Sequence record: SRR20825006_1000
DNA: 60,457 bases
Direction: 5' to 3' (one strand)
Positions 33,403-60,307 of the stretch are shown piece by piece (positions within the stretch are counted from its first letter, which is position 1; the number at the start of each line of letters is the position of its first letter). The position numbers and the translations under genes were made by a program. The notes below the pieces were generated by a model. It was given only the letters and a program-made list of their open reading frames with translations, did no database searches and was not told the origin of the DNA.

Positions 33403-33440
33403 CTGGACAACTTATACATTTTGTATAACCTCTTGTCCAG
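33403..33440 (-). promoter_or_regulatory. Sigma70-like promoter (TGGACA-N17-TATAAG) embedded in a 38-bp imperfect palindrome (putative operator)
   Basis: Plus strand CTGGACAA-C-TTATACA-TTT-TGTATAA-CCTC-TTGTCCAG; on the minus strand -35 at 33439-33434 and -10 at 33416-33411, spacer 17 nt. Confidence 0.65.
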
Positions 33441-33533
33441 ACTCATGTCGGAAAGTTCACGGAACTCGTTTTCGCGTTCACCGACCAATCCTCTCGCGAT
33501 TCTCAGACACGCACCTCCGCCTGGACGCCCGCT

Positions 33534-34100
33534 TTGGCTGCACCCGACGATCAACCCGACACATCCAATGGCGGATCCGCTGGCGGTGGTTCTTCAGAAT
33601 CCGACTTGGCCCATGAAAGGCCCACGATGCACATGGGGAAAAGCGAGCAACCAGCCGCCAGCCAACCTTCTGCACCCGAGAATTCCGAAACGGGGCAGAT
33701 GTTGAAATCGCTGCAATGGGAACTCAACCGAATCCAGCGAACCGTTCGATTGACGCTGCAATCAAAACTTCAGGGCTTGGTTGGCAAATCGCTCTCGTCA
33801 CTCAACGAAAACCGAGAACTTGCCAATTCCATCCAAAAGATGCTGGACACACATAGCCTTCGGATTCGATGCCCTCAGTGCGGACATGCGTCAATCTTGC
33901 GTGTCTCGCCGCGAAAGGGGATGCCAGGCGGAGCTTTTGTGCTCGATCACACCATTGAAGGCAAGCGTACGTTTCATGGTGGATCGTCTTCCGTCCCGCC
34001 GATTCAACTGACGGCAAAGCCGGAGCGAAAAGCAACGGCGACCGCCAAGACTCGGCCCCAACCCGCCGACGCGGGGGAGCTTCAGTCCAAGGTTGGCTAG
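33534..34100 (+). CDS. Hypothetical protein with a CxxC zinc-ribbon-like motif (start uncertain: 33534, 33627 or 33699)
   Basis: Helical region followed by RIRCPQCGH and downstream His residues; basic; divergent from the HlyD operon. Confidence 0.7.
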   Translation: MAAPDDQPDTSNGGSAGGGSSESDLAHERPTMHMGKSEQPAASQPSAPENSETGQMLKSLQWELNRIQRTVRLTLQSKLQGLVGKSLSSLNENRELANSIQKMLDTHSLRIRCPQCGHASILRVSPRKGMPGGAFVLDHTIEGKRTFHGGSSSVPPIQLTAKPERKATATAKTRPQPADAGELQSKVG

Positions 34101-42602: not shown

Positions 42603-43883
42603 TCAGTTATCCAGTCCGGTCATCATCGGACGCTTCGAAGGCATTAAAATCGCGTCGTCACGCGAAACCTCTTCTCGCATCGCCTTCAACCGTTCGTACT
42701 TGCGACGAGCGGCTTCCGCCACTTCCGGGTCTTCGTATTTTGGCACAGTGCCGATGGGTGACTGCATCGCGAGCTTTCCAAACTCATCCAAGATTTCGGT
42801 CAAGCTCATCCCCGTACGGTCGCTGGTTCCTCGAGTGAGCCGAGTGATCATTTCCATCGAAAGGATGCCAGCCGAACGGAAATGAATCTCCGTCACGACG
42901 GGTTCCGCCGGGTACATCCCCATCAAAACCATCTTGTCGAAACGAACTTCCGAAGAGATCGTCGGAAGCGGCGAATTGACCGCTTCGTTCCCCAAATCCA
43001 ATCGGTGCAAATTGGCTCGCTCATCACTGGTGATGTAGACCTCGATGCTGAAGTCATCCGCCGTTGAGTCCTGGGGCAAGTGCAACAGCATCAACTCCAA
43101 CGCTTGACGACCACCATCGGCCACACCCGAAACGGTGTCGTCGCTTTTTTCAAACGCGAACATCAATGCTAGGGTCCGCCCCAATAGAACTCCGGACTCC
43201 TCCGAAGTGCCAACAATACCTAGCGTACGAAATCGACTGACCGCGACGTTGATCATTGGCTCCGGTTCTACTGTGTAACCGGGACGTTCAATCTCATAGA
43301 ACGCTGCTGTGCAATCGGTGCCGAAGTAAACCCGTTTTTCTTCGTCGTAGTACAACTTGGGCTGCACCGACAAACGATGCTCCTCAAAGTACTGATCGAC
43401 CTGTTGCCGGGTAACAGAAGGCAGCTTTTGCCGACCTTGTGACGCCATTTCCAATCCAATCGTGATCGCCGAGATTCGCCCCAACTCGCCATGCTGACCA
43501 CTGCGAGCCATCGACAAAGGTGCAGAAACGGATGCTCCGGGGGCAACCAAACGACACGAGTTCCCTTTCGCCATCGTGTAAGCACGTGTCCACTCGCGTT
43601 CCGAATTCGGTAACGATTTCAACACAGTGATTTCGTCGCGGCGCGGCGCGGAGCCGATCTTTCCTACGCGAAGGGTCAGTTCACCGGCCGACTCTCCATC
43701 GGGTCTGGAAGACAACGACGGTTGCGCAAAACTACCCAGGCTCAGTTCAGGCTCATTCGGATCACGTTCTTTCGTTGCCGTCGATTGTTCCGCGGTGGAC
43801 TTCATCACCTGCCAAACAACCATCCCCGCCAACAGAACCACCAGCGCTATCGTCGCCCGTCTAAGAATCAATGGATCAATCAT
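42603..43883 (-). CDS. Hypothetical membrane-anchored protein (426 aa)
   Basis: Single N-terminal TM helix (ATIALVVLLAGMVVW); same strand as, and 58 nt downstream of, the PKS-Rieske-SDR genes. Confidence 0.8.
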   Translation of the reverse strand: MIDPLILRRATIALVVLLAGMVVWQVMKSTAEQSTATKERDPNEPELSLGSFAQPSLSSRPDGESAGELTLRVGKIGSAPRRDEITVLKSLPNSEREWTRAYTMAKGNSCRLVAPGASVSAPLSMARSGQHGELGRISAITIGLEMASQGRQKLPSVTRQQVDQYFEEHRLSVQPKLYYDEEKRVYFGTDCTAAFYEIERPGYTVEPEPMINVAVSRFRTLGIVGTSEESGVLLGRTLALMFAFEKSDDTVSGVADGGRQALELMLLHLPQDSTADDFSIEVYITSDERANLHRLDLGNEAVNSPLPTISSEVRFDKMVLMGMYPAEPVVTEIHFRSAGILSMEMITRLTRGTSDRTGMSLTEILDEFGKLAMQSPIGTVPKYEDPEVAEAARRKYERLKAMREEVSRDDAILMPSKRPMMTGLDN

Positions 43884-43941
43884 CGAACTACCAATCGCCT
43901 AGAAACATCTGTCACAAAAACTTGCTTGGCCGACTTTCGCA

Positions 43942-44739
43942 TCACACGCGAATGCTGACGCCGCCATCGATCACGAGCGTTTGCCCTTGGATCAAATCAC
44001 TTCCATCACCACACAAAAACGCTACCACTGACGAAACGTCTTGTTCGCATAGCCGTCGTTTACCAACCATCATTCGTTCGCTCGCCGCTTCAATCAAACC
44101 TTCCGAACCGGGCATGCTAGCGATCGCGTCTGTGGCAATGATGCCTGGCAGTACACAGTTGAAGTTGATCCCGCGATCACCAAACTCCAACGCAAGATGA
44201 CGGACCAACGCTTCCAACGCTGCCTTGGATGCACCGATGGCTCCGTAATGAGGCACCGCCCAATTCGAACCGTGGCTACTGACGGCGACCAACTTGCCAT
44301 GAGATTCGCCCTCGGCCAAATACTTCCAAGCCGCTTGAGCCAACCACACCACCGGCGCTGAGTTACTGCGAAGAACCGCGTCGAAATTGACAGGTGTCAA
44401 ATCATTCAGATCGCGAAAACCACCCGCCGCGGCATTGCTGACAACGATATCCAATCCGCCCCACTTCTCGACGACGCTCTCGACCATCGCGTCGACGTCT
44501 TCCTTGCAAGAGATGTCAGCTCGCACCAACATCACCGCTCCGCCGGAATTGGAAATCTCCGTTGCGACCTCGACCGCACGCTCTTCCGACTTCAAAAAGT
44601 TGATCGCAACCGACGCACCGCGAGCAGCCAATTCCAACGCGATCGCGCGACCGATCCCTCGGCTCGCACCGGTCACCAACGCTCGTTTGCCTTGCAAGTC
44701 CGCCAATGGTTTCATGCCTGTCCTCGATCCCTCATTCAT
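43942..44739 (-). CDS. fabL: SDR, FabL-type enoyl-ACP reductase
   Basis: TGASRGIG, VSNAAAG, catalytic Y-x6-K (YGAIGASK) then AALEALVRHLALE, as in FabL/FabI rather than the YxxxK of FabG. Confidence 0.75.
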   Translation of the reverse strand: MNEGSRTGMKPLADLQGKRALVTGASRGIGRAIALELAARGASVAINFLKSEERAVEVATEISNSGGAVMLVRADISCKEDVDAMVESVVEKWGGLDIVVSNAAAGGFRDLNDLTPVNFDAVLRSNSAPVVWLAQAAWKYLAEGESHGKLVAVSSHGSNWAVPHYGAIGASKAALEALVRHLALEFGDRGINFNCVLPGIIATDAIASMPGSEGLIEAASERMMVGKRRLCEQDVSSVVAFLCGDGSDLIQGQTLVIDGGVSIRV

Positions 44740-45892
44740 GGTGATCTTCCAGCGTACCTTCTTTCGAAGCCGCGATTTCTGATTTCATTGATGTGTTCCA
44801 GTGCAAATGAAAGGCGTGCAGTCTTTCTTCACAGCGGCCAAAGATCCGACCGGCGTCTTCATCCGGATTGTCGCAACGGGCCGAATCCATGCCGGCCTGA
44901 ACCAGCGGGAAAATCGCCGCGTCTTCGGCCAACACTTTTCGAGCCATCGATGCGGCACTGCGCCCCAATCCATTCGCGACCCGATTTCGAATCAAGCCGG
45001 ACCGGGTGGGACGGCGGGTAAACCCGAATACGGTCAGCTTGCACTTCGATGTCCCGGTGGGTGTGATCTGATAAACCAAACTCATTGTGTCCGTGAACGA
45101 TGCCATGATATTTGGGAACACGTGAACATGCTGATAGTGGGTCGAAAAATCTCCAACCAACCAACACATCACCCGCTCTTCCATCCGAGCCAAGAACGAA
45201 TCGTCTCGCGCATCGGTCCGAAATCTGGTGCCCCAATCCAACAATTCATGAGTGCTCTCACTCTCGCCCGGGTCGTTGCCGAATGTTTGCGAGTGGACCT
45301 CACTCAGATGATAACTCTCCAGCGAACCTTCGATCGGGATTTTCCAATCGCATGAGTACTCGAGTTCCTCACAAAGAACTTGCTGCCACGAGGCCGTATT
45401 GGTCTTCGTCGCAAAGTCATCCAACCAAGCGTCGTTACCGAGCGAATTGGATTCGCCAGCCAGATTCACAAAGACCAATTGTCCGACGACGCGAACTGGA
45501 TAGCTCCCCAGCCGATACCGTTCACGATCGAAATGCGGGAAGTTTTTTGCCGCTGGAATCTTGCGAGTCCGTCCGTCACCACCGTACTGCCATCCGTGAT
45601 AGGGGCACTTCAGTTCCGTTGCGTGACCGTCACCTTCGGACACCAATTGGCACTGTCGGTGAGCACAAACATTTCGGAGTGCGACCAATTCGCCGCCGTG
45701 GTTGCGTACGATCAACGGCACTCCCAACCGGTCCATCGCTTGATAGTCGCCGACTCTGGATAGCCCCTTTGTCGTGGTGACCAACTGCCAACCGGAATGC
45801 CGCAGCACGGACACTTCACGTCGATGAATCGATGGATTGGTGTACCAGTTCGACGGCAGCAATGCCGGTTGAGAAGTCGTCGCGTGATACAT
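44732..45892 (-). CDS. Rieske non-heme iron oxygenase alpha subunit
   Basis: Rieske ligands CAH...CPYH; WKIPIE, ESYHLSEVH and ED mononuclear-iron motifs. Confidence 0.9.
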   Translation of the reverse strand: MYHATTSQPALLPSNWYTNPSIHRREVSVLRHSGWQLVTTTKGLSRVGDYQAMDRLGVPLIVRNHGGELVALRNVCAHRQCQLVSEGDGHATELKCPYHGWQYGGDGRTRKIPAAKNFPHFDRERYRLGSYPVRVVGQLVFVNLAGESNSLGNDAWLDDFATKTNTASWQQVLCEELEYSCDWKIPIEGSLESYHLSEVHSQTFGNDPGESESTHELLDWGTRFRTDARDDSFLARMEERVMCWLVGDFSTHYQHVHVFPNIMASFTDTMSLVYQITPTGTSKCKLTVFGFTRRPTRSGLIRNRVANGLGRSAASMARKVLAEDAAIFPLVQAGMDSARCDNPDEDAGRIFGRCEERLHAFHLHWNTSMKSEIAASKEGTLEDHHE

Positions 45893-45895
45893 GGC

Positions 45896-48800
45896 TTAGC
45901 GAAGCCAACCAATTTGGTAGCCTTCGATCCTTAGGATCAACTCCTGGTTTTGCCCAACCAAGATCGCGGACATCATCCCACCATCCGAGACGGTGGTTGA
46001 TTCACCTTCCCATTGCACATGGACCTTCAATGGCTCACCGGGATCAGGCAAACGTCCAATCTCGATTGAATCGAACGAGACCGGCAGACTTGGTCGATCC
46101 GCAACATGGTATGCAAGCATGCCCGCGGCGTACAAAACCGCATCCATCGTCGCCGGCGACAAGACCCATCCCATCAAAGGACGTGCCTCGCCCGCCAAAT
46201 GAGCTGGACTTGGGGCGACAATAGTCCCGACCGCGATCGGAAGTTTGGACACATCATCGCCGGACATTCCCGCGTTGACGTTCGCAAATCCAATTGACCG
46301 CAAACACTGCAGCGATGGTCCGTGGTAAATCGGGGCTGTCTCGTCGGAGTACTGCACTGCGGCCTCCGTGACTTTCGTATCGCCGATTGCCACAATGGGC
46401 ACGCCGTCGTTTCCCAATTCGATCATTGCCGAGAAATGTGGGCGTTGAGCTTGGACCAACCGCCCGTCGCGTCGACGCAGATCGCTGACCAAAGACCACC
46501 GCGTATGCTCGGTTGGATCTTGCAATAGCTCGACTGCTAACGAATCATCCCCCATGAACTTCAGTGGCATGGTCGCCGAAACGTTTCGACAACGAACAAC
46601 CTTCTGATTGGTTCCAAAACGTGCCGCCTCGGCCAACATTTCAATTGCCATCACGAATGGCAGCGTAGGACGACCGTTCACGAGGTGGTGCTTCAAAAAC
46701 AAGTCACGTTCGGGATCAAGCGTTACCGCAAACGAATCCCGCGAGGTCGCTACCAACCGTTCTGTGGGGTCAATCATCGGCGAGGGGCCTGGCAACGAAT
46801 GCCCGGCTCGCGATGACACGGCGGGAAAGAACTTGCGGACGTAGCGACGGTCAGTGATCAGCACTTCGGCTTCATCACCACCATGCTCCATTTCATTTAG
46901 GAAATGCTGCAGCCCTTCATCGGCAGGCATGAATTCCATGCCAATCATGTCGAGTGCCAGCTTGGCTTCCGGTTTGGTCGCCATTCCGATGTCTCCCCAA
47001 GCGTGCCAATGAAAAGTCAGGCATCGGGTTTGGGGGCGTTGTTGACGCAACCGTCCAATCAACTTCGCGAGCATGTCATTCGCGGCGGAGTAGTCCGTGT
47101 GACCGTTGGCGCCAAAGCGTCCACTGATCGAACCGTAGCCGACGAAAAACTCCAACGGATCCTCCTGAGTCGCTGCAGCCAAAGCGATCGTCCCATCCAC
47201 CTTGGCGGAGAAACACTGAGCCACCTTGTCGGGACGCTTGCGATCAAAACGTGCGTCTTGACCGGACCCAGCACCTTGGATGACTCCGTGAATCGATCCT
47301 TCCATGCCTCGGATCTTCTCGACGACATTTTCAACGGCTTTGAAATCTGAAACGTTGACGCTGTGATAGGTCGCTTCGATCCCGCGTTCTCGACACGCTT
47401 GCAAAGTCAGATCGATCTCGATGGCCTTCTCGAGTTGCCGCCAAATCTTGACCGGGTTGCCACCTTCTTTCTGAATGCGAGCCATCATCACACGACGCAG
47501 ATCCGCTCGATCTCGCTGAGCATGCTCTCGCATGGACAGATCGATTTCCGGCACGGGGGCCATTCCCAACAGATGCAGTTTCAGCCCGTGCCGTTCGGCC
47601 AACGCCATCGCCGTCATCGCAGTGATCCCACGACCGCCGCCGGCAACAATCCAGGTTCCGCCCCGAGTGATTTGGTTCGCATCGGCGGCGATACCAAGCG
47701 GACGGTAACAGGCTTCCGTGGCCAAGCGTTGTTCACCCGCCACGGCGACTTCTTCGTCATAAGACGGAACCGCCAATTCTCGGAAGACACCGTCCACCAA
47801 ATCATCAGGGCTCGCACCGTCAATTTGATCGACAACCAACATCGGCGTGTCGCGATATCCACGCATCCAAGCCTCGATCAACATCGCTTTAGTAAGACCA
47901 GCCAACCCGCCAGACTCAGCCGAGCGACCTTTGATCTGTTCAGAAGTCTGGACCGATTCAGACATCGCGTCGAATCCGAAACCGCCACCCAACTTCAGCG
48001 TGGTAACCAAGGAAGCCTTGCCCATACGATCATCATCGATCGTTCGCTGCATCCAGCGTTGACACACTCGATAAGGAATCGCGAGTGCATCGGAATATCG
48101 TCGTTCCCAACCGGCGGTGTCCAGCGTTGTCCAGCAAGCCGCCTCATCATGTGGCGTCGTCAGGAACAAATGCGGCGTCGAATCAGTGGCCCAAATTCGA
48201 TCGAGCTCGGTATCCAAATCGGACAGTGTCAGTTCGGCGGCGATTCGATAAACGGCTACCCCAGCCATCCGACATCGATTTTCAACCGCATCCGCGACTG
48301 GATTGTTGCCGACGATCAGCGCCGCCCCATTCAGCTGCGGCATCGTCGGCATCCCTTTTCGTCGCGGTGCCGATGTCATCCGCATAACGAAACGATGTGT
48401 TCCCGTCGCAGGAGCTTGAGGTGTCTCCTCAGTTGCGGTGGGATTCTGATTCAGCGAGGCGTTTTTTTTTTCGTCCGTAGGCTGACCAATCTGATCCATC
48501 ACAAAAGCGTGAATGGATGAGAGGGTCGGGAAATCAGAAAGCTTCAAATTCGACTCACGAAGCGACTGCAACTCATATTGTTGTTCCAGTTCGCCGAGCA
48601 ATTGAGCTCGCTTGATGCTATCGATGCCCAGTTCTCCTTCGAGATCAGCATCCATGTCGATGATGTCTTCATCGTATCCCGTTTGATCGACGACCAAATC
48701 AATCATCAATCGCCGCAATGATTCAGCAATGTCGGTCGGAGCTTCATCGCTGACCTGGCTGCACTCGACATCGCTTTCGCAAGCGTCCAATGTCGCGTCA

Positions 48801-51800
48801 ATCAATTCGACTTCGCCGCAACTCGCAGGATCACCGACCAATTGCAGAATGTCATTGAGCGAAGCGAACTGAGCCAATCGCATCGATTGCGTGTCGACTT
48901 CCAAGTTGCCCCACTGAACGATCTCGCCGATCAACTGAGCTTTCTTGATACTGTCGACGCCCAACTCGGCTTCCAAGTCTGCATCGAATTCAATCACTTC
49001 CGGATCGTATCCCGTCAGGTCGACAACGAGATCAAACAAGAACGATCGCGCCGAGCGGACGCGGTCTTGCAAGTCCTCTTGTACCGCTGAGTCGATTGCT
49101 TCCGTGGCAACCGCAACCGGTTGAAGATGCCCCGACGCAACACTGCCGTGATGCACGCCGTTTACATGGGCCGTTCCATTGCCATTGATTGGCGGAATCG
49201 AAGCAGACGTTGTGCCAGCGTCACTCGCCATCGCTTTCGAAGCTAGATTGGCTTCATTGCGACTTTCATCCCGAACAGTCTCCTGTTGTCGCCGACTTCG
49301 ACGAGTCACATCGACGACTTCAAACGCGGGCTGGCTCGGTTCAACAACGCTCGTCGCGACCGCTTGCGGTGCCAAAGTGACTTCGCCAACCGCGCTGTCA
49401 GTGGACCGGTTCGACGAGTCCACCGAACGACCGAGGGATTCATAAGCCAAATCGATCAATTGCCGCTGCCGATTCGGATCGCGACCACGATCATCTGCCG
49501 ACAAACACAGGACATGCGGGGCGACCGTCGCGTTGGCCAAACGAGTCAGCACATTGTTGGGACCTACTTCCACCAGCAACTCGCAACCATCGTGGACCAA
49601 ACGCTCGGTCGCGCCGCTAAAGCACACCGGACGGGTCAACTGGGTGACCAAATTGTCGACAATGTCGGAGGGCTCGGCCAAGTAGCGATTCGAAACGGCG
49701 GACAGGAAAGCAAACCGTGGAGGTCGTGCGTTCTGACCGGTGAACCGAGCTCGCAACATCTCTTGCGCCGGCATCATCTCGGGCGTGTGGAATGCGGCTG
49801 GAACAGGAATCACGATTGACGCCATTCCAGATGCGGCAAGCTGCTTCTTTGCCGCCGCCATCTGGTCAGGAGATCCAGCGATCACTGTTTGCTGTGGCGA
49901 ATTGTGATGCGAAATCGTGTAACGAATGTCAGATCCCTGCAGGGCAGCATCTACCGCCGATGGTGCACCGCGAACGGAGAGCAATTCACCACGCTCTCGT
50001 GTTGTCATCACCACACTGTCACTTCGCGATTTGGCAAACTCGATCGCTTGTCGCGTTGACACGACGCCAGCACACCAAGCTGCTGTGCACTCACCAAAAC
50101 TGTGACCGAGCACCGCATCGGGACGCAAACCGCGACGCATCAGTGAATCGGCAAACATTGAACCGACCGCCAAAACCCAAGCCTGGGTCCACCATACGTC
50201 TCGACCAAGTTGAGAGTCGGGGTCGTGCAATCGATCCGAAACCGAAGGGAGTCCCATCGACTTCAGATTTCGATCGAATCCATCCAAGAAGGCTTGGCTG
50301 GCCGAACCATCCTTTGTTTGCAACCAAGTGGGCACGGCCGAGTACTGCGAACCTTGCCCAGGGAACAACCAACCGACGCGTGGATCGGAGAACTCACTGG
50401 AACGAGCATTTGGCAGCCAAACCCAGCCATCGTGTTTTGAAAGTACGCCAGACACCTGCTGGCGAACTGGACCAGCCAATGCCGCCAATGCCGCCGCTGA
50501 TAACTCGCTAGCATCTTTGGCCAACAAGACTGCTCGGAAAGTCATTGCCGACGAAGGCGAGAATTCCGAAACACGGGTCTCGGTCGAAGGCTTTCCACCA
50601 GCAATCTTTTCCAAAGAAGCTGTCAGAGCGTCCAACGATGCACACTGGAGTCGAACAACTAAAGTCTCTGACGCATCCAAGTCCGCCGCCGTCACGATCG
50701 CTTCGGAACGAGACCGTGTTGGCGCGGAAGAAGTCGGCTGAGGCGTGGATGCTAGGGAGGTCGAAATCAAAGTGGACTCGCCGGAAGACAATGTGGACGA
50801 CTCGTAGTTCATCTGGGGGGCGACACTATAATTAACTCGATATCCGTCGTCGGCAACTTCACCGATGGGGATTGAAATGCCGGAAGCATCCTTGCGATTG
50901 AACTTGGGTGACAATGTCGCCGCTATCGTTCGAACGATACCCTGACCGCCGCCCATATGCCCGATTTGGCCGACCAATTTTTGTGAAGAAATAAATCCGG
51001 GCACTTCAGAAAGACTCGCTGATTCCGCACGAGCCACCTTAACATCCCCCGCGAAAGACTCGGTCGGCTTGGACAAAACTCCCAGAATCGTTCTTCCTTC
51101 CGCTTTGGCGTCGGACAGACGTTGGAGCGTCAGAACTGCGACCCCTTCGCCGGGGATAATCTGCGATCCGTCGGCAGGTAGGTCTTCGGGTCGACCTGAT
51201 GGCAACAATTGTTTCTTGTGAGCGAGCTGCTCAAAAGCGACCAGATCCATGCCTCGCTGGGTCACGCCGCACAAAGCTAAATCGATCGCATGGCAATGCA
51301 GTTGTTCCATGGCTGTGATGAGCGCTAAGCCACCGGATGCCTCGTCCGCATCAACAGCAAACGCTCCGCCCATCAGGTCGAACGTTCTGGCGATTCGAGA
51401 CGCGAGCGTGCTGGCGGTGAAACCACCGGTCTCATCAAGAAGGGCACCATACTTTTTCAGTGCCAACTTTCTGAGTTCATCGGCGGCGGACTTGGTTGCT
51501 GATGTGTCCCATCCCATCGCCGCCAATGCTTGCCCCAGATGCTTTGCGATCTCAGGCAATCGCAAACCAATTTGCAGCTCGTTGCTGAACTGGCCGCCAA
51601 AAATCGTGCCGACGACAACACCGACACGCTCGCGGTCGACCGACCACTTCCCACCATCGAATTCGTCCATCGCTTGGCGAACCGCTTCAATCAACATCAG
51701 CTGCGCGGGGTTGGCATTCGCCACCATTTTTGGCGGGATACGGTAGGACTGCGCGTCGAACTTGAAATCCCGAACGTATCCACCGCGGCAATGAAGCGTT

Positions 51801-54721
51801 GTGTAGCTGGACCGATTCGGATCCAAACCCATCCAAGATCCGTTCTTCGCATCAACCACCCAGCGTCCTTCCGGCGGATCACTGATTGCGGATCGCCCGC
51901 TCTGAAGCAACGCCTGAAACTCTTGCAACGTTCCAGCACCCGGCAACACCACTCCACGACCAACGATCGCGATGGGCTCCTCAGTCAACTTGGCTTCTGA
52001 TGCAGAGCTGCCGGATGAAGGCTTCTCTTCGATCACCGCGTGAGCATTCAAACCACCAATGCCGAATGCATTGACCGCGGCGACGCGACCGCTGGACTTG
52101 GTTCGCTGCTGCCACGGTTCCACCCGATCCACAATCCGAACCGCTGGATCGCTCCAGTCGTGACGTTCAGTTGGAACAGCAAAGTTGATTGACGGCGGAA
52201 TCTCTCCTCGACGCATCGCCAGCAAACATTTTACCACGCCAACCAAACCAGCGGCTTCCAACAAGTGGCCCAAATTGCTTTTGACACTACCGATGGGCAA
52301 GACTGTCCGGGTGCTTTTGCCATCTCGCAAGAGCGACGTCAAACTTTCCAATTCCGTTGCATCGCCCACCTGAGTGCTTGTAGCATGGCACTCCAAATAA
52401 TCTATGTTGAGAGGTTCTGCATCAACTGCGCGACGCATCGCCGTTTGCTGACCTTCACTTCGCGGAGCCCAGAGGCCTTTGCCTTTTCCGTCGGACGCAA
52501 CCCCCACACCTCGCAACGTTGCCAAAACAGGGAGCCCGTTGGCTTCCGCGACGCTTCGACGAGCGACGACGACCGCGACGTAACCTTCGCTGCTGATCAA
52601 TCCGCTGGCACGGTTATCAAACGGGAACGATCCGGTTTCGCTGCACGCGCCCGACTGAGAAAACAACGCCAGATTGTCGACATTGTTGAACGTTGCCCCG
52701 CCGACGATTGCCAAGTCCAACCGATTCGCTGCAATTGCCGAAGCCGCATGCTGCAATGCCAAGAGCGAAGACGAACAAGCCGCGTCGATGACCTCTCGGC
52801 GGCCTTCGAATCCCATCAATCTCGCCGCCAAAGACGCCGCCGAGTACGCATTGAACGCTGGCGAATGACCTGACTCATACCGAGGCCGATCACGTCGGAT
52901 GGCCGAGGCAACGGTGTCTTTGACTTGGTTCCGCAAATCAGAATCGGTGTGGTGCATTGACGGCACCTGATCCACCAATTCCATCGCGGTTTTTGCCATC
53001 GTCGCCATCGCCAGCGGCCCACCCAGTTCGGTTCCACCGCTGTGGCCGACGAACACGCCAGCTCGCATGGCTTTGATCGATAGCGTCCGACTGGACGCCT
53101 GATGCAGCGGCGAATCCGACGACAAGCTGCCCGTGCCAGAAGCGGCCTTGAGTGCCGCGACGGCGACCTGGGCAAACTGGCGATGCGTCAAATCAAAATC
53201 GCCTAAAGACTGAATCGCATTCTCGACATTGGCGTCCAACGGGCTGGGCGAAACACAACCTCCCAACTGCGTGTACGTCTTTCCTGGAACACCATGCTGC
53301 TTCGCAAAATACAATTCGCGATTCAATCGGTCTTCAGGCATCGGTGCGATCACCGAACGCCCCTCAAACAGCATGCTTTCAAACGCTTTCGCGTTATCAA
53401 CTCCACCTGGCAAACGAACCTCGAAACCACAAATCACACAGTCGTCGGGGTCGCCGCTCGGGTGCGTTGCCGATGGTTGAAGTGCGGCTTGCGGTTCGGA
53501 TGACGGTCGCTTCGCTGCCTTCGGCACCCTTGTCGGAACCGCTGACCAATTGCCGATCATCTGCAGTAGTTCAGTGCTGCCAATCTCGGGCGTATCATCC
53601 AAGTGCGTTGTCGCGATCACATCATCGATGTTGGCGCGATCAAAGACAGGATCATCCCGAAAGTATGGCAAGAATGTTTTCACGAACGGATCCGCCATCT
53701 GATCCAACTCTTCGCGTTGAGTGGATCCACCGGCGGAATCGGGCCGGTCAAGTTGCCTTGGTCGTTTCAGCCGATCCGGTTTTCGCGTCTGCAACCATTT
53801 CGTTGTGGCGGAATGAAACGCCGCGTCCAGCGATTTGATTGCGGTGCCTTCTCGAGTCGTCAGGTGATACGTCCGACCGTGCAATCGTGGTGTGCTCATC
53901 ACCTTGCAAATCGCTCGAGCGATCCAGTCCACATCGACAATGTTCTTTCGTTCGCTTCCTGAAAAACCAAGGTCGCGAAACCACTGGCCGTCTTCCGGCA
54001 ACCCAAACCGTGACGCCAACATCTGGTACATCGAGAATGCACCATAGATTGTTCGATCGCCTGAGACCGGCGACAGTCCCGTCCGGTCAATCACAATCGA
54101 TGGACGATAAACGGTCAGGTTCGACCCACCAAACGCTTCTCGAACAATGCCTTCCGCGATCAACTTGCTTCGTTCGTAGTCATTTGCAAACGACTGACCC
54201 GTATCGCCTTCGGATTCCTTCACCCGTCCCGATCGCGTGCCGCAAACATAGGCGGTGGAGACATGATGCAACTGCGTGATCCCAAATGCATTGCAGAACG
54301 CCACGACCTCGCGGGTTCCGTCAACGTTGGTTCGATAAGGTTCGTTATCGCCCGCTGGATCGGCGGGCAAGAAACTCAGGCTCGCCGCACTATGCAGCAT
54401 TCGATCGCAATTGTCCCGAACCCACTGAACTGACTCGTCCGACAATCCCAATCGGGGCTGATTCAAATCGCCTTCCAAAACTTTTGGCCTCGGCAACGAC
54501 ACTTGCCACGCCTGTTCGAATCGCTCCAGGATTTGGTCAATGCGTTGTTCAGCCGTTTGCTTCCCTTTGGCTCGGACCAGGACCGCGCACTCGATTCGCG
54601 CCCTCAACAACTCAGCAACCACGTAGGAGCCAAGCATTCCGCTGGCTCCCGTGATCAAGGGCATTCGTCGATAGGGCGAGTCAGACATGATGTGAGCAGG
54701 GCTTCGCTGAACGGCGCTCAA
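45896..54721 (-). CDS. Iterative type I PKS/FAS: R(NAD_binding_4)-KS-KS(no Cys)-AT-ACP-ACP-KR-DH (alternative ATG start at 54688)
   Basis: R: TGASGMLG, YERSK, YRPSIV. KS1: DAACSSS, ECHATST, KSNLGH. KS2: DADEASG. AT: FPGQGSQY, GHSFGE, AFH. ACPs: LGVDSIK, LGIDSIK. KR: GGGRGI, YSAAND. DH: HLVNGRPTLP, MDAVL. Confidence 0.93.
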   Translation of the reverse strand: MSAVQRSPAHIMSDSPYRRMPLITGASGMLGSYVVAELLRARIECAVLVRAKGKQTAEQRIDQILERFEQAWQVSLPRPKVLEGDLNQPRLGLSDESVQWVRDNCDRMLHSAASLSFLPADPAGDNEPYRTNVDGTREVVAFCNAFGITQLHHVSTAYVCGTRSGRVKESEGDTGQSFANDYERSKLIAEGIVREAFGGSNLTVYRPSIVIDRTGLSPVSGDRTIYGAFSMYQMLASRFGLPEDGQWFRDLGFSGSERKNIVDVDWIARAICKVMSTPRLHGRTYHLTTREGTAIKSLDAAFHSATTKWLQTRKPDRLKRPRQLDRPDSAGGSTQREELDQMADPFVKTFLPYFRDDPVFDRANIDDVIATTHLDDTPEIGSTELLQMIGNWSAVPTRVPKAAKRPSSEPQAALQPSATHPSGDPDDCVICGFEVRLPGGVDNAKAFESMLFEGRSVIAPMPEDRLNRELYFAKQHGVPGKTYTQLGGCVSPSPLDANVENAIQSLGDFDLTHRQFAQVAVAALKAASGTGSLSSDSPLHQASSRTLSIKAMRAGVFVGHSGGTELGGPLAMATMAKTAMELVDQVPSMHHTDSDLRNQVKDTVASAIRRDRPRYESGHSPAFNAYSAASLAARLMGFEGRREVIDAACSSSLLALQHAASAIAANRLDLAIVGGATFNNVDNLALFSQSGACSETGSFPFDNRASGLISSEGYVAVVVARRSVAEANGLPVLATLRGVGVASDGKGKGLWAPRSEGQQTAMRRAVDAEPLNIDYLECHATSTQVGDATELESLTSLLRDGKSTRTVLPIGSVKSNLGHLLEAAGLVGVVKCLLAMRRGEIPPSINFAVPTERHDWSDPAVRIVDRVEPWQQRTKSSGRVAAVNAFGIGGLNAHAVIEEKPSSGSSASEAKLTEEPIAIVGRGVVLPGAGTLQEFQALLQSGRSAISDPPEGRWVVDAKNGSWMGLDPNRSSYTTLHCRGGYVRDFKFDAQSYRIPPKMVANANPAQLMLIEAVRQAMDEFDGGKWSVDRERVGVVVGTIFGGQFSNELQIGLRLPEIAKHLGQALAAMGWDTSATKSAADELRKLALKKYGALLDETGGFTASTLASRIARTFDLMGGAFAVDADEASGGLALITAMEQLHCHAIDLALCGVTQRGMDLVAFEQLAHKKQLLPSGRPEDLPADGSQIIPGEGVAVLTLQRLSDAKAEGRTILGVLSKPTESFAGDVKVARAESASLSEVPGFISSQKLVGQIGHMGGGQGIVRTIAATLSPKFNRKDASGISIPIGEVADDGYRVNYSVAPQMNYESSTLSSGESTLISTSLASTPQPTSSAPTRSRSEAIVTAADLDASETLVVRLQCASLDALTASLEKIAGGKPSTETRVSEFSPSSAMTFRAVLLAKDASELSAAALAALAGPVRQQVSGVLSKHDGWVWLPNARSSEFSDPRVGWLFPGQGSQYSAVPTWLQTKDGSASQAFLDGFDRNLKSMGLPSVSDRLHDPDSQLGRDVWWTQAWVLAVGSMFADSLMRRGLRPDAVLGHSFGECTAAWCAGVVSTRQAIEFAKSRSDSVVMTTRERGELLSVRGAPSAVDAALQGSDIRYTISHHNSPQQTVIAGSPDQMAAAKKQLAASGMASIVIPVPAAFHTPEMMPAQEMLRARFTGQNARPPRFAFLSAVSNRYLAEPSDIVDNLVTQLTRPVCFSGATERLVHDGCELLVEVGPNNVLTRLANATVAPHVLCLSADDRGRDPNRQRQLIDLAYESLGRSVDSSNRSTDSAVGEVTLAPQAVATSVVEPSQPAFEVVDVTRRSRRQQETVRDESRNEANLASKAMASDAGTTSASIPPINGNGTAHVNGVHHGSVASGHLQPVAVATEAIDSAVQEDLQDRVRSARSFLFDLVVDLTGYDPEVIEFDADLEAELGVDSIKKAQLIGEIVQWGNLEVDTQSMRLAQFASLNDILQLVGDPASCGEVELIDATLDACESDVECSQVSDEAPTDIAESLRRLMIDLVVDQTGYDEDIIDMDADLEGELGIDSIKRAQLLGELEQQYELQSLRESNLKLSDFPTLSSIHAFVMDQIGQPTDEKKNASLNQNPTATEETPQAPATGTHRFVMRMTSAPRRKGMPTMPQLNGAALIVGNNPVADAVENRCRMAGVAVYRIAAELTLSDLDTELDRIWATDSTPHLFLTTPHDEAACWTTLDTAGWERRYSDALAIPYRVCQRWMQRTIDDDRMGKASLVTTLKLGGGFGFDAMSESVQTSEQIKGRSAESGGLAGLTKAMLIEAWMRGYRDTPMLVVDQIDGASPDDLVDGVFRELAVPSYDEEVAVAGEQRLATEACYRPLGIAADANQITRGGTWIVAGGGRGITAMTAMALAERHGLKLHLLGMAPVPEIDLSMREHAQRDRADLRRVMMARIQKEGGNPVKIWRQLEKAIEIDLTLQACRERGIEATYHSVNVSDFKAVENVVEKIRGMEGSIHGVIQGAGSGQDARFDRKRPDKVAQCFSAKVDGTIALAAATQEDPLEFFVGYGSISGRFGANGHTDYSAANDMLAKLIGRLRQQRPQTRCLTFHWHAWGDIGMATKPEAKLALDMIGMEFMPADEGLQHFLNEMEHGGDEAEVLITDRRYVRKFFPAVSSRAGHSLPGPSPMIDPTERLVATSRDSFAVTLDPERDLFLKHHLVNGRPTLPFVMAIEMLAEAARFGTNQKVVRCRNVSATMPLKFMGDDSLAVELLQDPTEHTRWSLVSDLRRRDGRLVQAQRPHFSAMIELGNDGVPIVAIGDTKVTEAAVQYSDETAPIYHGPSLQCLRSIGFANVNAGMSGDDVSKLPIAVGTIVAPSPAHLAGEARPLMGWVLSPATMDAVLYAAGMLAYHVADRPSLPVSFDSIEIGRLPDPGEPLKVHVQWEGESTTVSDGGMMSAILVGQNQELILRIEGYQIGWLR

Positions 54722-55147
54722 AGCGGCAGAAGTACATATGTTTCGTATCGCCCAAGTTTATTCACAGAATCTCAAGTGCAAATGCTGTGACACAAAAAGA
54801 CGCCCATGCCGCGCGAGCCAAACCGTAAGATCCGAATCAAATCGATCACGCGGCTTGTGCGGAACGTCCCGATTGGATCCACGGCCTTTCCAGCACGCGT
54901 GTTCCATTGCAAAAGCCCGCCAAATCACCTCCGGCTCGATTCCGAGGGTTGTCTACGCGGACCGCTGGCCTCAACTGTCCATGCCGCTGCACTGTGAATT
55001 TCCCGCTAAAACCACGTTTCTGATTTGGCGGAACCACCTATTCTGACTAGGTTGATTGAAACGTGTGGAGGCGGCCACATCGGATCTCGCCCGATCAATT
55101 CGGCTTTGTCGGACTCCCGCAACTTCCTCTCTACCAGACCCGCGACC

Positions 55148-56911
55148 ATGCATTCGACGTCCAATCCGTCCCGGTTGCCGGCATCTTCGAGACTGCCCGA
55201 GAGCCCGGACTCGCCCGTCCGTTGCTTGATGATTCAACCGTGTTTCGAGCAGACAAACTATTGGAACTTTGTTGAAAGTGCCAAAGCGATTGGTGCAAAA
55301 GCGACCGCACCACCGCTTGGTTTGATGACCGTCGCAGCTTTACTGCCTCAACACTGGGAATTCCGCATCGCTGACCAAAACGTTGGTCCAGTCGAGGAAT
55401 CCGATTGGCAGTGGGCTGATGTAATCTGCACGGGAGGCATGCTGCCTCAACAACCCGGCATCTTGCAGTGGGTTGAACGTGCCAACGCCGAAGGCAAATT
55501 TGTTGTCGTCGGCGGACCTGATCCAACCAGCCAACCGCAAATCTACCAGGACGCGGATGCTGTCATTGTCGGCGAAGGCGAATTGACTATTCCGATGTGG
55601 CTGGATGCCTGGCGAGATGGAAACCCCAAGGGCCAATTTGAATCGCCACACAAACCGGACGTGACCACGACACCAACTCCACGCTTCGACTTGGTCGACT
55701 TCAATGATTACCTACACGTCGGAGTGCAATCCTCGCGGGGATGTCCGTACAACTGCGAATTCTGCGACATCATTGAACTGTTTGGCCGGCGTCCACGCGT
55801 CAAAACGCCAGATCAATTTCTTGCCGAACTGCAAAAGCTCTATGACCTGGGCTATCGAGGTTGGGTCGACTTCACGGACGACAACTTCATCGGCAATCGC
55901 AAGCTCATCAAACCATTACTGGTTGCGTTGAAGCAATGGAACGAGGATCACAACTACCCCTTTGTGTTCTCAACCGAAGCCAGTATCAACCTCGCTGACG
56001 ACAAAGAACTGCTGGAGTTAATGCGTGACGTTCAGTTTCGATACGTCTTTTTGGGAATCGAATCACCCGATGAAGAAACGCTGATTCATACCCAAAAACG
56101 AATCAACACGGTCCATCCCATCATCGATCGAGTTCGAACGATCTACGACCACGGCATCTCCGTCGCGGCCGGTTTGATCATCGGGTTCGACACGGACAAA
56201 CCAGGCACGGATGGTCCAATGATCCGCTTCATTCAAGAAAGCGGCATCACGCTATCGATGGTTGGCCTGCTGTCGGCACTGCCCAACACACAGCTCACTC
56301 GCCGTCTCGCCAAAGAACGCCGGCTGATCGATTCCGAACACAACTGGATCCAGGACACGGGCGTAAATTACGAGCTCCGAAGCGCTGAGTCCAAGGACCA
56401 AACGATCAGCGGTATGAATTTCATCACGACGCGAGATCGTGTGGAAATCTACCAAGAACTTCGAAACATCATCGAAAACGTGTACTCGCCACGAGCGTTC
56501 ATGGACCGGGTGATCGACACCGCTGCACGAATCAAGATCGTCAACAAACACGTTCCCAATGCATGGGAATTCCGCCGGATGTTCAAAGGCTTTCGAACCA
56601 TCGCTTGGCGAATGCTTCGGGACAAACGCACTCGGTACCTTTATGTGCGTAACTTCGTGCGGGCATCCCTGATGGGCCCGACCAAGTTCGAGTACGCCCA
56701 TACCGTCATGGGCAGCTTCCTGCACTTCGATTTGCAAACTCAGAAGATGCTCGATGCCCTCGATGTCTCCATCGACTTTGCCAAGAACCACGCGACCTAC
56801 CCACGAAGCGTCGCGGATATGCCTGCGATCGCTACAACAAACAACTTGCATCCTTTGCCACTTGCTCAGACCGACGGCTGCAGTCCCCAGACCGAAGGCA
56901 AATCAACATGA
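55148..56911 (+). CDS. Cobalamin-binding radical SAM protein, HpnP-like (probable C-terminal DUF4070)
   Basis: PPLGLMTVAALLP, VVVGGPDPTS, VGEGE, SRGCPYNCEFCDI (CxxxCxxC), DDNFIGN, TEASINLA, FLGIES, IIGFD, ALPNTQL. Confidence 0.9.
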   Translation: MHSTSNPSRLPASSRLPESPDSPVRCLMIQPCFEQTNYWNFVESAKAIGAKATAPPLGLMTVAALLPQHWEFRIADQNVGPVEESDWQWADVICTGGMLPQQPGILQWVERANAEGKFVVVGGPDPTSQPQIYQDADAVIVGEGELTIPMWLDAWRDGNPKGQFESPHKPDVTTTPTPRFDLVDFNDYLHVGVQSSRGCPYNCEFCDIIELFGRRPRVKTPDQFLAELQKLYDLGYRGWVDFTDDNFIGNRKLIKPLLVALKQWNEDHNYPFVFSTEASINLADDKELLELMRDVQFRYVFLGIESPDEETLIHTQKRINTVHPIIDRVRTIYDHGISVAAGLIIGFDTDKPGTDGPMIRFIQESGITLSMVGLLSALPNTQLTRRLAKERRLIDSEHNWIQDTGVNYELRSAESKDQTISGMNFITTRDRVEIYQELRNIIENVYSPRAFMDRVIDTAARIKIVNKHVPNAWEFRRMFKGFRTIAWRMLRDKRTRYLYVRNFVRASLMGPTKFEYAHTVMGSFLHFDLQTQKMLDALDVSIDFAKNHATYPRSVADMPAIATTNNLHPLPLAQTDGCSPQTEGKST

Positions 56912-57274
56912 CGACGCAACGTTTCGAATGAGCGATCAGCGACCGCTGGTCGATAAGCGATCAAACTGAAAATGATTGGTTTTCATCCGAACAAATCCGA
57001 CCCCCATTCACGTGAGATCTGAAGTACGACAGCCCTATATCGAACTCAAGTGTCCGGCTCCGAAATCGTCCCAAATCCTTGAAATACCTGACTTAACGGA
57101 AACCAAAACACCTTTATAAGAAGTTGGCGGCACCTCGCCATCGATCCGCTCGAAAGTCGAGCACAGCAGCCTTTATTCCTGGTTGGCGCAATTACAATGC
57201 CAACCGTCCAGCCGCCAAGCAAAAAGTGGCTGGAGCGCCCACTCTTCTTGTTTGTTCACCTTGGCTAGCGTTTG

Positions 57275-58852
57275 ATGCCGCAACTAGACACAAATCCGCT
57301 CCCGGTCGGTGTCGTTTGCACAGACACGATCGAACAACTGGACCCGTTCGTCCCCAGCGCCGCGGTTACTGATCAACGGCTTACCCAACGACGAAGCTCG
57401 ACCCCGAACCGGCGTCGTGCGACCCGAAATCAAGCGAACGGTTCAATGCAAGTCTTGCTGACTTGCCTACCGCTTGTCTTCGGTGATTTGATTGCGTTGG
57501 TATCAGCCGCCGCCGTCGCAGCTCTGCCCATTTTTGCTCTTGGCTTGATCAACTGGCATTCGGGACTCGGATTACAAGCCGTTTGTCTGACGGTGTGCTA
57601 TCTGGTAAGCGGATCGATCTTAGGCCTGTATCCAGGCACGGGTATCAGCCCAGTTTTGGAACTCCGGCAAACCGTTCTCGCCGCTGCATCGTCTTTTGCT
57701 TTTGTCATGCTTGCCAACATGACCCTGGCTACCTTGAGCAGCGGAGAGTTTTTGCTTTGCTTGCTCGGAATGCTTACCTCAGCGTTCATGGTCCCGATTG
57801 CTCGACTACTCACTCGCAAAGCTTGTTCGCGAACCCGTTGGTGGGGCGAAAACACAATCATCGTTGGATCCGGCCCTCAAGGGCGAGCGCTGTATCGCTT
57901 TTATAGTCGCGTTCCTCAACGAGGCCTTCGACCAATTGGTGTGGTGGACTTCCCACGCCAATCCAGTGACGTGCAGGCTGAAGATCTCCAAGGGATTCCT
58001 TACCTTGGATCAGTTCAACGATTAGACCGCCTACGCCGAAAACTTCAAATCCGCTGGGCAATTGTTGCCCCAGGTGGATGCGAACAGATCGACATGAACG
58101 AAGTCATGTCCCATGCAGGAAATGTCCCCAACCTATTGGTTTTACCTTCACAAGTTTTACTTCCGAGTCTTTGGACCAACACTCGTGAATGCGCCGGTGT
58201 AATGGGAGTCCACTTGCGGGATCACCTGCGAAGCCCCATCAGTCGATTCGTCAAACGAACCGTAGATCTGCTTGCTTCGGCGGCAGCGTTGCTTTTTCTT
58301 ATGCCCCTGTTCGTTTTGGTAGCGATCTACATTAAACGCAAAAGTCCCGGCCCTGTTTTCTACGGCCACAAACGAATTGGCATTGGTGGCGAAACTTTCA
58401 AAGCATGGAAATTTCGGACGATGGTCACCAACGCAGATCAAGTCCTTGAACAATACCTCGAGCAAGACCCTGAGATGCGACGGCAATGGGTTGAAGATCA
58501 AAAGTTGAAGAACGATCCGCGAATCATTTCTGGCATTGGACACTTTCTACGCAAGACCAGCCTGGATGAAATCCCACAGCTTTGGAACACCTTCAAAGGT
58601 GAGATGAGCCTAGTCGGCCCCCGCCCCATCGTCTCGGACGAAATCGGTCGCTACCGAGAGATGTACCCGCTTTACCTGCGAGTCCGCCCCGGCATCACAG
58701 GCCTCTGGCAAGTCTCCGGCCGCAACGACACCAGCTACGAACAACGCATCCGCCTCGACAGTTATTACGTTTGCAACTGGTCCCCCTGGCTCGACACCTA
58801 CATCATCTTCCGAACCATCCGAACCATGCTATTCCGCGAGGGTGCGTACTGA
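57275..58852 (+). CDS. wbaP: Undecaprenyl-phosphate sugar-1-phosphate transferase (WbaP-like priming glycosyltransferase)
   Basis: N-terminal TM helices; [61 protein letters not shown]. Confidence 0.93.
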
Positions 58853-58951: not shown

Positions 58952-60307
58952 TTGGGCCGAGACTCCCATATCAATCGGCTTATCGAGGCTGCAGATCGTC
59001 TACTCGCATTTTCCAATACTCGAAAGCTAACCACCGACAGTGCGATCGCGTTTGTTATAAAAATCGCGAGCGCATTCCTGTCCTACCTCATGTTTGTTGC
59101 CTTGGCGAGGCTTCTAGATCTTGAAGAGTTTGGGTATTTCGGATTTGTGTTTAGCCTATCAACCTTCTTCGCGAAGTTCACCGTTTTTGGACAACAACAG
59201 CTTTCATTACGCGAAATAGCTATTGCGTTGGAAAAGAAAGACAAAGCCAAGATTGGCAGCGTCAAAACATTTTCTGTCTGCATCTTCTCTATATTCAGCA
59301 TGGTTTCCATTGCACTTCTGTCTGGATTGAGTTATCTGTTTCACCAACCTCTCTATTTCACCGCAATACCGCTAGCAATTGCACTCGGATTCAGCGAACT
59401 AGTCACATCCGTTCAGCGAGGACATGGCTCAATTGGCTTGGCATTGTTTCCTCGAGATGTCCTCTGGCGCTCTTTAGTCATTGTCATGTGCGGATTTTGC
59501 ACGTTTGCAATTGGCTTTCAACCAGAAACTACGTCCACCACTTGGGCTATCTCAGCTATCCTAATCGTCGTGGTCACTGGGCAGGTTCTTTCGCATCAGT
59601 CAACAAGGATTTGGACGAATCCCTCGTGGCTGAAGCTCGATTTATTTGAGCTATTTAAGTCGAGTGTCGTTTTTTTCGGCATCTCCGTTGTATCAGTTGG
59701 AGTCCCGACACTTTCGGCAATCGTTATTGGAGAGATGCTGCCCATCATCAAAGTTGGACCCTACTTTGCTGCACTGAAAACATCACAGTTGTTGAACCTG
59801 CTTCTCCTATCAAGCAACATCGTTGCTTCACCACTTATCGCTCGGCAGTACGCTGCTGGAAATTTTGATGCAATGGAGAGCACGGCTTCGTTTGTGTCAA
59901 TCGTTGCGGGACTATTTTCATTTTTGAGTTACCTGCTGTTTGTTGCGTTTGGGAGGGCAATTCTAGACGTCTTCGGCGATGGGTTTGGGGACGCTTACCC
60001 AGAGCTACTATTACTCGGTGCGGGATACGTTTTCGGCGCTTTTTGCGGCCCAAACGTTCAATGCTTGCAGATGACCGGGCTTGAACGCAAAACTCTCTCT
60101 ATCATGATCGTCACAGGCTCAGGCACACTGGCGATCATGCCACTTGCGGTGCACCTCTGGGGAACCTTTGGGGCGGCATCCCTAATTACGTGTGGGATGA
60201 TCTGGTGGAATTTATGGGCAACCCAAACGACTCGGCGACAGATTGGAGTAGACCCGTCCGCCTGGTCAATCCTGCGGCGTCAATCATATGTTCGTGAGCC
60301 ATTATGA
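58952..60307 (+). CDS. Wzx-type oligosaccharide flippase
   Basis: About 12 hydrophobic helices; LARLLDLEEFGYF; VGPYFAA; FGDGF..AY..L; follows wbaP; visibly more AT-rich. Confidence 0.85.
   Translation: MGRDSHINRLIEAADRLLAFSNTRKLTTDSAIAFVIKIASAFLSYLMFVALARLLDLEEFGYFGFVFSLSTFFAKFTVFGQQQLSLREIAIALEKKDKAKIGSVKTFSVCIFSIFSMVSIALLSGLSYLFHQPLYFTAIPLAIALGFSELVTSVQRGHGSIGLALFPRDVLWRSLVIVMCGFCTFAIGFQPETTSTTWAISAILIVVVTGQVLSHQSTRIWTNPSWLKLDLFELFKSSVVFFGISVVSVGVPTLSAIVIGEMLPIIKVGPYFAALKTSQLLNLLLLSSNIVASPLIARQYAAGNFDAMESTASFVSIVAGLFSFLSYLLFVAFGRAILDVFGDGFGDAYPELLLLGAGYVFGAFCGPNVQCLQMTGLERKTLSIMIVTGSGTLAIMPLAVHLWGTFGAASLITCGMIWWNLWATQTTRRQIGVDPSAWSILRRQSYVREPL

Follow-up and report, generated by a model that had tools for sequence, protein, structure and literature searches.

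The window analyzed here is a stretch of DNA of 60,457 nucleotides (nt) from sequence record SRR20825006_1000, of which positions 42,603 to 56,911 hold a predicted lipid biosynthesis locus. It is centred on an iterative type I polyketide synthase/fatty acid synthase (PKS/FAS, hereafter PKS) composed of thioester reductase (R), ketosynthase (KS), chain-length factor (CLF), acyltransferase (AT), two acyl carrier protein (ACP), ketoreductase (KR) and dehydratase (DH) domains. Genes for a Rieske oxygenase, a short-chain dehydrogenase/reductase (SDR) and a membrane-anchored protein accompany it on the same strand, a radical S-adenosylmethionine (SAM) gene is divergent, and the next genes past the radical SAM gene are those for WbaP and Wzx. 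The genes are as follows.

42603..43883, minus strand: membrane-anchored protein of an undescribed family, core, 426 aa; no Pfam or NCBIfam family
43942..44739, minus strand: FabL-type SDR, predicted trans-acting enoyl-ACP reductase, core; FabL is the best model and PDB match
44732..45892, minus strand: Rieske non-heme iron oxygenase, accessory; PF00355 and PF00848 (Ring_hydroxyl_A)
45896..54721, minus strand: iterative type I PKS/FAS, 2941 aa, R-KS-CLF-AT-ACP-ACP-KR-DH by Pfam and NCBIfam domains
55025..56911, plus strand: HpnP-like B12-dependent radical SAM protein, accessory, divergent; B12-binding, radical SAM and DUF4070 domains
57272..58852, plus strand: WbaP-type initiating polyprenyl glycosylphosphotransferase; TIGR03022, 517 bits, above cut-off
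58952..60307, plus strand: Wzx-type flippase, PF01943; the polysaccharide locus continues beyond the window end

The PKS stop codon is separated from the Rieske ATG by 3 nt, the Rieske and SDR genes overlap by 8 nt, and 58 nt lie between the SDR gene and that of the membrane-anchored protein. Judged from the lengths of homologues, the PKS and the radical SAM protein may start at later ATG codons (around 54688 and 55148, respectively). A promoter scan gave fewer sites than in shuffled sequence. An open reading frame (ORF) search with Pfam and NCBIfam scanning returned the five ORFs, their coordinates, the domain order, the tight operon junctions and the divergent radical SAM gene just as the initial annotation had described them. 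It had also noted the lack of thioesterase, enoyl reductase, PfaD and phosphopantetheinyl transferase (PPTase) genes, and none of these families was matched among the 36 window ORFs scanned; for PfaD the whole genome was not searched. Hereafter G-, L- and P-numbers denote the genomes, loci and proteins compared, and G001 is the nearest genome (PKS 98% identical). A Sfp-type PPTase is encoded elsewhere in G001, and within the operon in several relatives. The domains of the PKS are positioned as follows.

53537..54664, minus strand: N-terminal thioester reductase (R), residues 23-271 by NAD_binding_4/thioester reductase models (PF07993, TIGR01746)
51998..53449, minus strand: condensing KS of PfaC type, Cys-His-His, ECHAT motif; colinear with the PfaC KS-CLF structure 6RIW
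50822..51985, minus strand: CLF-like non-condensing KS with Glu at the Cys position; DADEAS aligns with SAEENS of 6RIW
49472..50389, minus strand: AT with malonyl-type motifs GHSFG and AAFH; PF00698
48488..49054, minus strand: two tandem ACPs, LGVDS and LGIDS; PF00550 twice
46862..48394, minus strand: KR; PF08659
45899..46774, minus strand: one PKS-type DH; PF21089 and PF14765

Catalytic residues were found to be kept in nearly all orthologues, upholding the earlier assignment to a Pfa/Hgl-type iterative synthase with a KS-CLF pair and reductive release. Cys-His-His of the first KS is present in 57 of 57 aligned copies. The catalytic Cys position of the CLF is occupied by Glu, Asp or Asn in all 33 rows of the clade described below. 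As the second KS carries Glu at this position and aligns there with the CLF of PfaC, the PKS possesses a single condensing KS. GHSxG of the AT (33/33) and Ser, Tyr, Asn and the GQD motif of the KR (33/33) are fully kept, as is YxxxK of the R domain (33/33), while the catalytic His and Asp of the DH are found in 33 and 32 of 34 segments, the misses being gaps. Among PDB entries, the R domain best matches the MxaA reductase domain; many relatives encode R as an ORF of its own, upstream. The MxaA reductase domain releases alcohols, and R domains are able to release aldehydes. For the SDR, the best PDB match is Bacillus subtilis FabL (3oic, E 5e-47), and a Y-x6-K spacing is kept in all 32 clade copies, with Gly at the classical Lys position in place of YxxxK. 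This agrees with the trans-acting FabL-type enoyl reductase proposed earlier, and the score remains below the FabL cut-off (NF005975, 228 bits vs 328).

In the predicted chemistry, the AT would load malonyl units on the two ACPs and the single KS would carry out repeated condensations, with chain length set by the CLF. Each cycle would end in complete reduction by KR, DH and the separate FabL-type enzyme; if a dehydration were skipped, a hydroxyl could remain at omega-1 or C3, as is found in heterocyst glycolipids. The R domain, by its likeness to the MxaA reductase, would release a primary alcohol. We infer full reduction per cycle and a saturated primary alcohol from the FabL-like SDR, the MxaA-like R domain and the conserved residues. 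On sequence grounds, the product is likely to be long-chain and reduced, with release as an alcohol.

Two known synthase types come close. The Hgl synthase of Nostoc/Anabaena, as presented in the accessible parts of two sources (bioRxiv 2024.05.17.594646; PMC3098273), likewise combines KS, CLF, AT, ACP, KR, DH, enoyl reductase and thioester reductase and yields a long-chain alcohol, which is then glycosylated. It differs in being a multi-gene island with two KSs and a PfaD-type enoyl reductase, whereas the window synthase is one polypeptide with a single PfaC-type condensing KS and a FabL-type SDR. Neither HglT nor HgdABC is found in the window locus, and the window type is coupled to WbaP, Wzx, Wzy, Wzc, Wza and a ligase-like protein. 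Pfa synthases (PfaA-E) share tandem ACPs, and the window PKS resembles a PfaC-like KS-CLF joined to a PfaA-like AT-ACPn-KR-DH. Unlike them, it has a reductase domain and lacks the PfaA-type KS (which heads KS-MAT-ACPn-KR), the FabA-type DH pair and PfaD; the domain scan found no FabA-type isomerase domain in the PKS, and the PfaA model TIGR02813 scores it at 544 bits against a cut-off of 1010. Synthesis of polyunsaturated fatty acids was rejected, as no isomerase DH and no PfaD were found. The window synthase works like an Hgl synthase yet fails membership of both Pfa and Hgl; this placement relative to characterised synthases rests on 6RIW and hidden Markov model scores. In the accessible part of Shulse and Allen 2011 on secondary lipid synthases, Rhodopirellula is unmentioned and the planctomycete types I and J have other layouts.

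The synthase is real, intact and widespread. Its KS-CLF region is 99% identical to P0001 (NCBI name Rhodopirellula baltica), and the named close matches are planctomycetes. Full-length PKS orthologues are present in 17 of 23 genomes of the genus, and the KS-CLF family in 42 of 191 genomes of the family (Pirellulaceae) and 57 of 401 sampled genomes of the class (Planctomycetia). A KS-CLF tree of 59 rows placed the G001 copy inside a clade of 33 rows (support 100), next to a sister group of 19 rows (support 93). Seven further rows show the clade gene order and a KR GxD motif yet form an unresolved grade; they were placed with the clade by gene order, not as a single clade. The clade is represented by 35 de-duplicated loci, each 12-22 kb long; upstream halves were added to three of them, and three were assigned by score instead of the tree. 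The R domain is found in all 35, the SDR in 34 (the miss is a contig end), the Rieske gene and an acyltransferase with an HHxxxDG motif in 23 each, the gene of the membrane-anchored protein in 20 and radical SAM in 16. PKS, Rieske oxygenase, SDR and radical SAM protein had been regarded as the defining unit, which does not hold, since only 12 of the 35 loci carry all four. The core across Planctomycetia is the synthase, its reductase domain and the FabL-type enoyl reductase.

The core is often joined by a PapA5-like acyltransferase, which is absent from the window's locus; the window's lineage has no orthologue of the clade acyltransferase, only unlinked paralogues. In the relatives, xHxxxDG is kept in 39 of 39 copies and HHxxxDG in 35 of 39, and the protein matches PapA5 (E 4e-12) and also resembles wax synthases and condensation domains. 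This putative enzyme may esterify the product. Mycobacterial phthiocerol dimycocerosate (PDIM) and sulfolipid pathways consist of Pps/Pks2, PapA acyltransferases and MmpL. They are alike in pairing a PKS with an HHxxxDG PapA5-like acyltransferase, and MMPL occurs in the sister subfamily described below; the window type differs in its Pfa-type iterative synthase, reductive release and Wzy polysaccharide partner, and no MMPL was seen in its loci.

The Rieske and radical SAM proteins appear intact and may be optional tailoring enzymes, the former for hydroxylation or desaturation and the latter for C-methylation; either could act on the glycan instead of the lipid. The mononuclear-iron ligands of the Rieske oxygenase are kept in 22 of 22 copies, its CxH in 21 of 22, and CxxxCxxC of the radical SAM protein in 14 of 14. 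The radical SAM protein does belong to the system, as the initial annotation had assumed. A close orthologue occurs in 11 of 191 Pirellulaceae genomes, all 11 with the PKS; within the genus, 10 of 23 genomes carry it, all PKS-positive, and it adjoins the PKS in nine. Its domains (B12-binding, radical SAM, DUF4070) are those of HpnP, the hopanoid C-2 methylase, whereas no squalene-hopene cyclase over cut-off is found in the carrier genomes G001 and G017 (best 49 and 57 bits, cut-off 431). Hopanoid methylation was rejected on this ground, and the substrate should therefore not be a home-made hopanoid. Plasmid matches to the protein (31-47% identity) carry generic names only, and in the accessible part of PMC10697835 HpnP-like sister clades are uncharacterised.

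The membrane-anchored protein is a core part of the system and is found almost only alongside the PKS. It was detected in 16 of 191 family genomes, every one of them a PKS carrier. At class level, 22 of 401 genomes have it, and 19 of these also carry the PKS; the other three are found among the five weakest matches. It has one N-terminal hydrophobic membrane helix, and 186 representatives remain at 50% identity. No Pfam or NCBIfam match was obtained for it or for 32 distant homologues, nor a usable Atlas match or PDB sequence match. Its structural model (mean pLDDT 72.8) found no Foldseek match at E<=0.001, with a best VIA Z of 3.5, by which a new fold is not thereby shown. The protein defines a new protein family. 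It occurs in two copies in several genomes, and one copy (L010:19903-21657) has a C-terminal insertion resembling a PDZ domain. What the initial annotation had overlooked is this core status, the acyltransferase of the relatives, the ligase-like protein and the coupling to polysaccharide genes.

Beyond the window end, the locus is read from G001, where it runs on for about 35 kb with two GT4 glycosyltransferases, a Wzy-like protein, two sulfotransferases, Wzx and large surface proteins, and further on with a PF04932 protein, a lipoprotein-like protein, Wza and Wzc. WbaP adjoins the PKS in 13 of 35 clade loci. At least one of the Wza, Wzc, WbaP, Wzx and PF04932 genes is present within some 20 kb in 33 of 47 loci of the window type (25 of 35 in the clade, 8 of 12 outer ones) and in 0 of 14 sister loci, a count which is biased because the neighbour profiles were built from clade loci; by Pfam scan a flippase is found in one of the 14 sister loci. 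Where the genes of the membrane-anchored protein and radical SAM are detached from the PKS, they often adjoin Wza or Wzc (L109, L111, L114, L128). Functional coupling of the PKS to a polysaccharide system is considered likely. The initial annotation had read the product as a specialised membrane or surface lipid, oxygenated or desaturated and C-methylated. On this reading the lipid would be free and unrelated to the polysaccharide, and the neighbourhood an inherited chance. The intact enzymes, the ten of 35 clade loci without a polysaccharide gene within about 20 kb and the free long-chain alcohols and diols reported from a planctomycete fit that reading. We consider it improbable, since differing polysaccharide genes in differing orders flank the operon across two bacterial orders, the ligase-like and membrane-anchored proteins track the PKS even when unlinked, and five PKS-less members of the genus lack the ligase-like protein, the membrane-anchored protein and the Wza orthologue, four of them also the Wzc orthologue. 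All five retain other Wza/Wzc paralogues.

Sulfotransferases adjoin the operon in L031, L046, L047 and the G001 locus, and the polysaccharide is predicted to be sulfated in several genomes. Together with the capacity of R domains for aldehyde release, this adjacency could also hint at a secreted small molecule such as a fatty aldehyde or alcohol signal, a surfactant or an alkyl sulfate. Such a product is quite improbable: the sulfotransferases lie among the glycosyltransferases and vary together with them, neither a regulator nor a dedicated small-molecule exporter recurs among the neighbour families, and the ligase-like protein and Wza/Wzc would be left unexplained. WbaP as the frequent nearest neighbour would suit a further alternative, in which the alcohol is phosphorylated and replaces undecaprenyl phosphate as a dedicated polysaccharide carrier. 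No kinase recurs among the neighbour families, and WbaP scores as an ordinary undecaprenyl-phosphate transferase, which makes this the least probable of the readings considered.

The window WbaP is 63% identical to the G001 copy and 93% to that of G010, while the PKS shows 98% and 87%, respectively; next to a stable lipid operon, the glycan cassette appears to be exchanged as in serotype switching. A Cys-rich lipoprotein-like protein without Pfam family precedes Wza (L003:8396-9466, L090:13317-14204) and recurs across the class.

The ligase-like protein resembles O-antigen ligases and belongs to PF04932; the G001 copy scores 34.8 bits (cut-off 31.7) and is polytopic, with about 11 hydrophobic segments. 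The PF04932 proteins near the PKS form one family (27-76% identity), for which BLAST gave no match to the variable polytopic proteins of glycosyltransferase operons. A profile of this family matched 42 of the 401 class genomes; the 22 at >=319 bits all have the PKS and the 20 weaker ones all lack it. Nine of the 22 had contributed to the profile and the other 13 had not, and many copies lie apart from the PKS. Of the class-sample genomes on the KS tree, all 18 with a clade or outer synthase and none of the 13 with a sister synthase possess the protein; within the genus it was found in 5/5 PKS-positive and 0/5 PKS-negative genomes tested. In the tree of the PF04932 proteins, the 24 rows from PKS genomes formed one clade (support 100), and nine rows drawn from 8 of the 20 genomes without the PKS fell outside it. 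The family has invariant Arg residues together with an Asp-Asn pair. A His is expected in WaaL catalysis.

Taken together, these patterns make covalent anchoring of the polysaccharide to a PKS-made saturated long-chain alcohol or diol, through the ligase-like protein, the best single mechanism, to which we give slightly less than an even chance on sequence grounds. WbaP, glycosyltransferases, sulfotransferases, Wzx and Wzy, whose genes are present, would build a polymer linked to undecaprenyl diphosphate, the PF04932 protein would transfer this polymer to the hydroxyl of the lipid, and Wzc and Wza would export the conjugate. The membrane-anchored protein might, speculatively, handle the lipid or the conjugate. 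The known counterparts are Wzy-dependent (group 1) capsules and WaaL, which are alike in WbaP, Wzx, Wzy, Wzc, Wza and a PF04932 protein; the acceptor of WaaL is lipid A-core, that of the present system is predicted to be the PKS-made alcohol.

Covalent anchoring was weighed against the same lipid and polysaccharide without ligation. There the PF04932 protein would be a second polymerase, and the alcohol or wax ester would form a non-covalent layer under the polysaccharide, or the acyltransferase would decorate sugars to give an emulsan-like amphiphile. Co-inheritance and adjacency suit this reading, and the xHxxxDG acyltransferase in 23 of 35 loci is kin of PapA5 and wax synthases. Several points tell against anchoring. 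PF04932 includes polymerases in addition to ligases; in PKS-less genomes, the sister proteins are often encoded at the usual Wzy position, between glycosyltransferases and Wzx; one member of the ligase-like family matches the polymerase model TIGR04370; and its profile matched no solved PDB structure. A separate Wzy is supported in three of about ten polytopic candidates scanned, two of them below cut-off. The ligase/PKS counts reflect co-inheritance and not causation, as kin genomes are not independent. The acyltransferase of many relatives points to esters and not a free hydroxyl. Genes for the ligase-like protein, Wza and Wzc are not within the window and were read from G001, and the neighbour bias and the ten loci without polysaccharide genes belong here as well. 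Opposed to the reading without ligation are the PF04932 gene inside the lipid operon in L127, L145 (gene order SDR-acyltransferase-ligase-PPTase-membrane-anchored protein) and outer loci, the second, variable Wzy-like protein (TIGR04370) in three genomes (G001, G022 and G344; above cut-off in one), and the window's lineage, which keeps the system without an orthologue of the clade acyltransferase. The reading without ligation is considered rather unlikely.

Lipids reported from planctomycetes bear on the product. Long-chain 1,(omega-1)-diols are reportedly major neutral lipids of Planctomicrobium piriforme, which serves as a lead only; P0059 from this species is a PKS orthologue of 49% identity. 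In diol-containing Planctopirus, the synthase P0250 (NCBI-named) is of the sister type; the polypeptide contains a C45 domain and lacks an R domain. The Planctopirus diols therefore support the family chemistry only loosely, and the sister type of this synthase also weighs against the anchor model. The omega-1 hydroxy acids of Telmatocola and Zavarzinella (PMC3327967) were not linked to the window PKS. The PKS family is a candidate source of the long-chain alcohols and diols reported in planctomycetes.

Planctomycetes colonise algal and particle surfaces with an envelope that is poorly understood, and the synthase family gains a putative role in it. According to the accessible part of a 2026 review, group 1 capsules are held non-covalently by Wzi, and only ATP-binding cassette (ABC)-type capsules are lipid-anchored, on phosphatidylglycerol-Kdo (PG-Kdo) (PMC13721041). 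The anchor, if true, would overturn a purely non-covalent holding of Wzy-type capsules in diderm bacteria, and the system would be categorically new. In its full form, which we put forward tentatively, the proposal is a third capsule tether: a Wzy/Wza-exported, often sulfated polysaccharide would be joined by WaaL-like ligation to a PKS alcohol, served by the new membrane protein family and tuned by the Rieske oxygenase and by an HpnP-like methylase acting on something other than a hopanoid, and the same chassis with swapped release modules (C45 and GH3, or MMPL and acyltransferase) would give other planctomycete lipids. The locus also offers the first contextual clue for the HpnP-like methylase clade, which bears on lipid biomarker interpretation.

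In the accessible parts of the literature covered, planctomycete type I PKS and hglE-KS clusters appear only as antiSMASH counts or with product unknown (PMC3098273, bioRxiv 2024.05.17.594646, PMC10697835, PMC13721041, PMC12493201, PMC12673574, PMC13190842, PMC13092639, PMC10896814, PMC2649909, PMC3327967, PMC3035269, PMC4334474). A description of an R-KS-CLF-AT-ACP2-KR-DH cluster was not found in this search, which subscription papers mostly fall outside. The PKS gene has probably been counted before, because several genome-mining papers lie outside the literature covered.

Sister loci possess a PPTase gene after the PKS and end in an R domain, in MMPL and acyltransferase, or in a GH3 ligase. 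In the last group, synthases of the order KS-CLF-AT-ACPn-KR-DH-DH are followed by a FabL-type SDR, and a GH3-family acyl-amino-acid ligase takes the place of the reductase. The GH3-family loci are listed here.

L052:858-2666, L054:18274-19983, L055:18031-19686, L067:1690-3360 and L070:1571-3217: sister GH3-family loci

Many related proteins contain an internal C45 acyltransferase domain. These clusters suggest very-long-chain N-acyl amino lipids as products; in the accessible part of the OlsH paper (PMC12493201) PKSs are unmentioned. Other sister clusters (L058, L063, L064, L034/L035, L061) feature a doubled KR, or a doubled KS-CLF didomain accompanied by ACPs as separate proteins. They also contain MMPL and a PapA5-like acyltransferase, a combination reminiscent of lipid export in mycobacteria. 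G014 holds both a window-type synthase and a sister-type cluster with MMPL and acyltransferase. G001 has a second, free-standing thioester reductase without PKS (L072:9124-10629 and L073:3394-5927). It is near glycosyltransferases, ABC transporters, a fatty acid desaturase and a PapA5-like acyltransferase, perhaps as part of another glycolipid pathway.

Elsewhere in the window, a ferredoxin-NADP reductase-like gene (37619-38593) lies 4 kb from the operon and could supply electrons to the Rieske oxygenase, whose operon has no reductase for it. At 27829-33554, a tandem M50 peptidase-HlyD fusion and GAF-HlyD fusion form a secretion-type gene pair.

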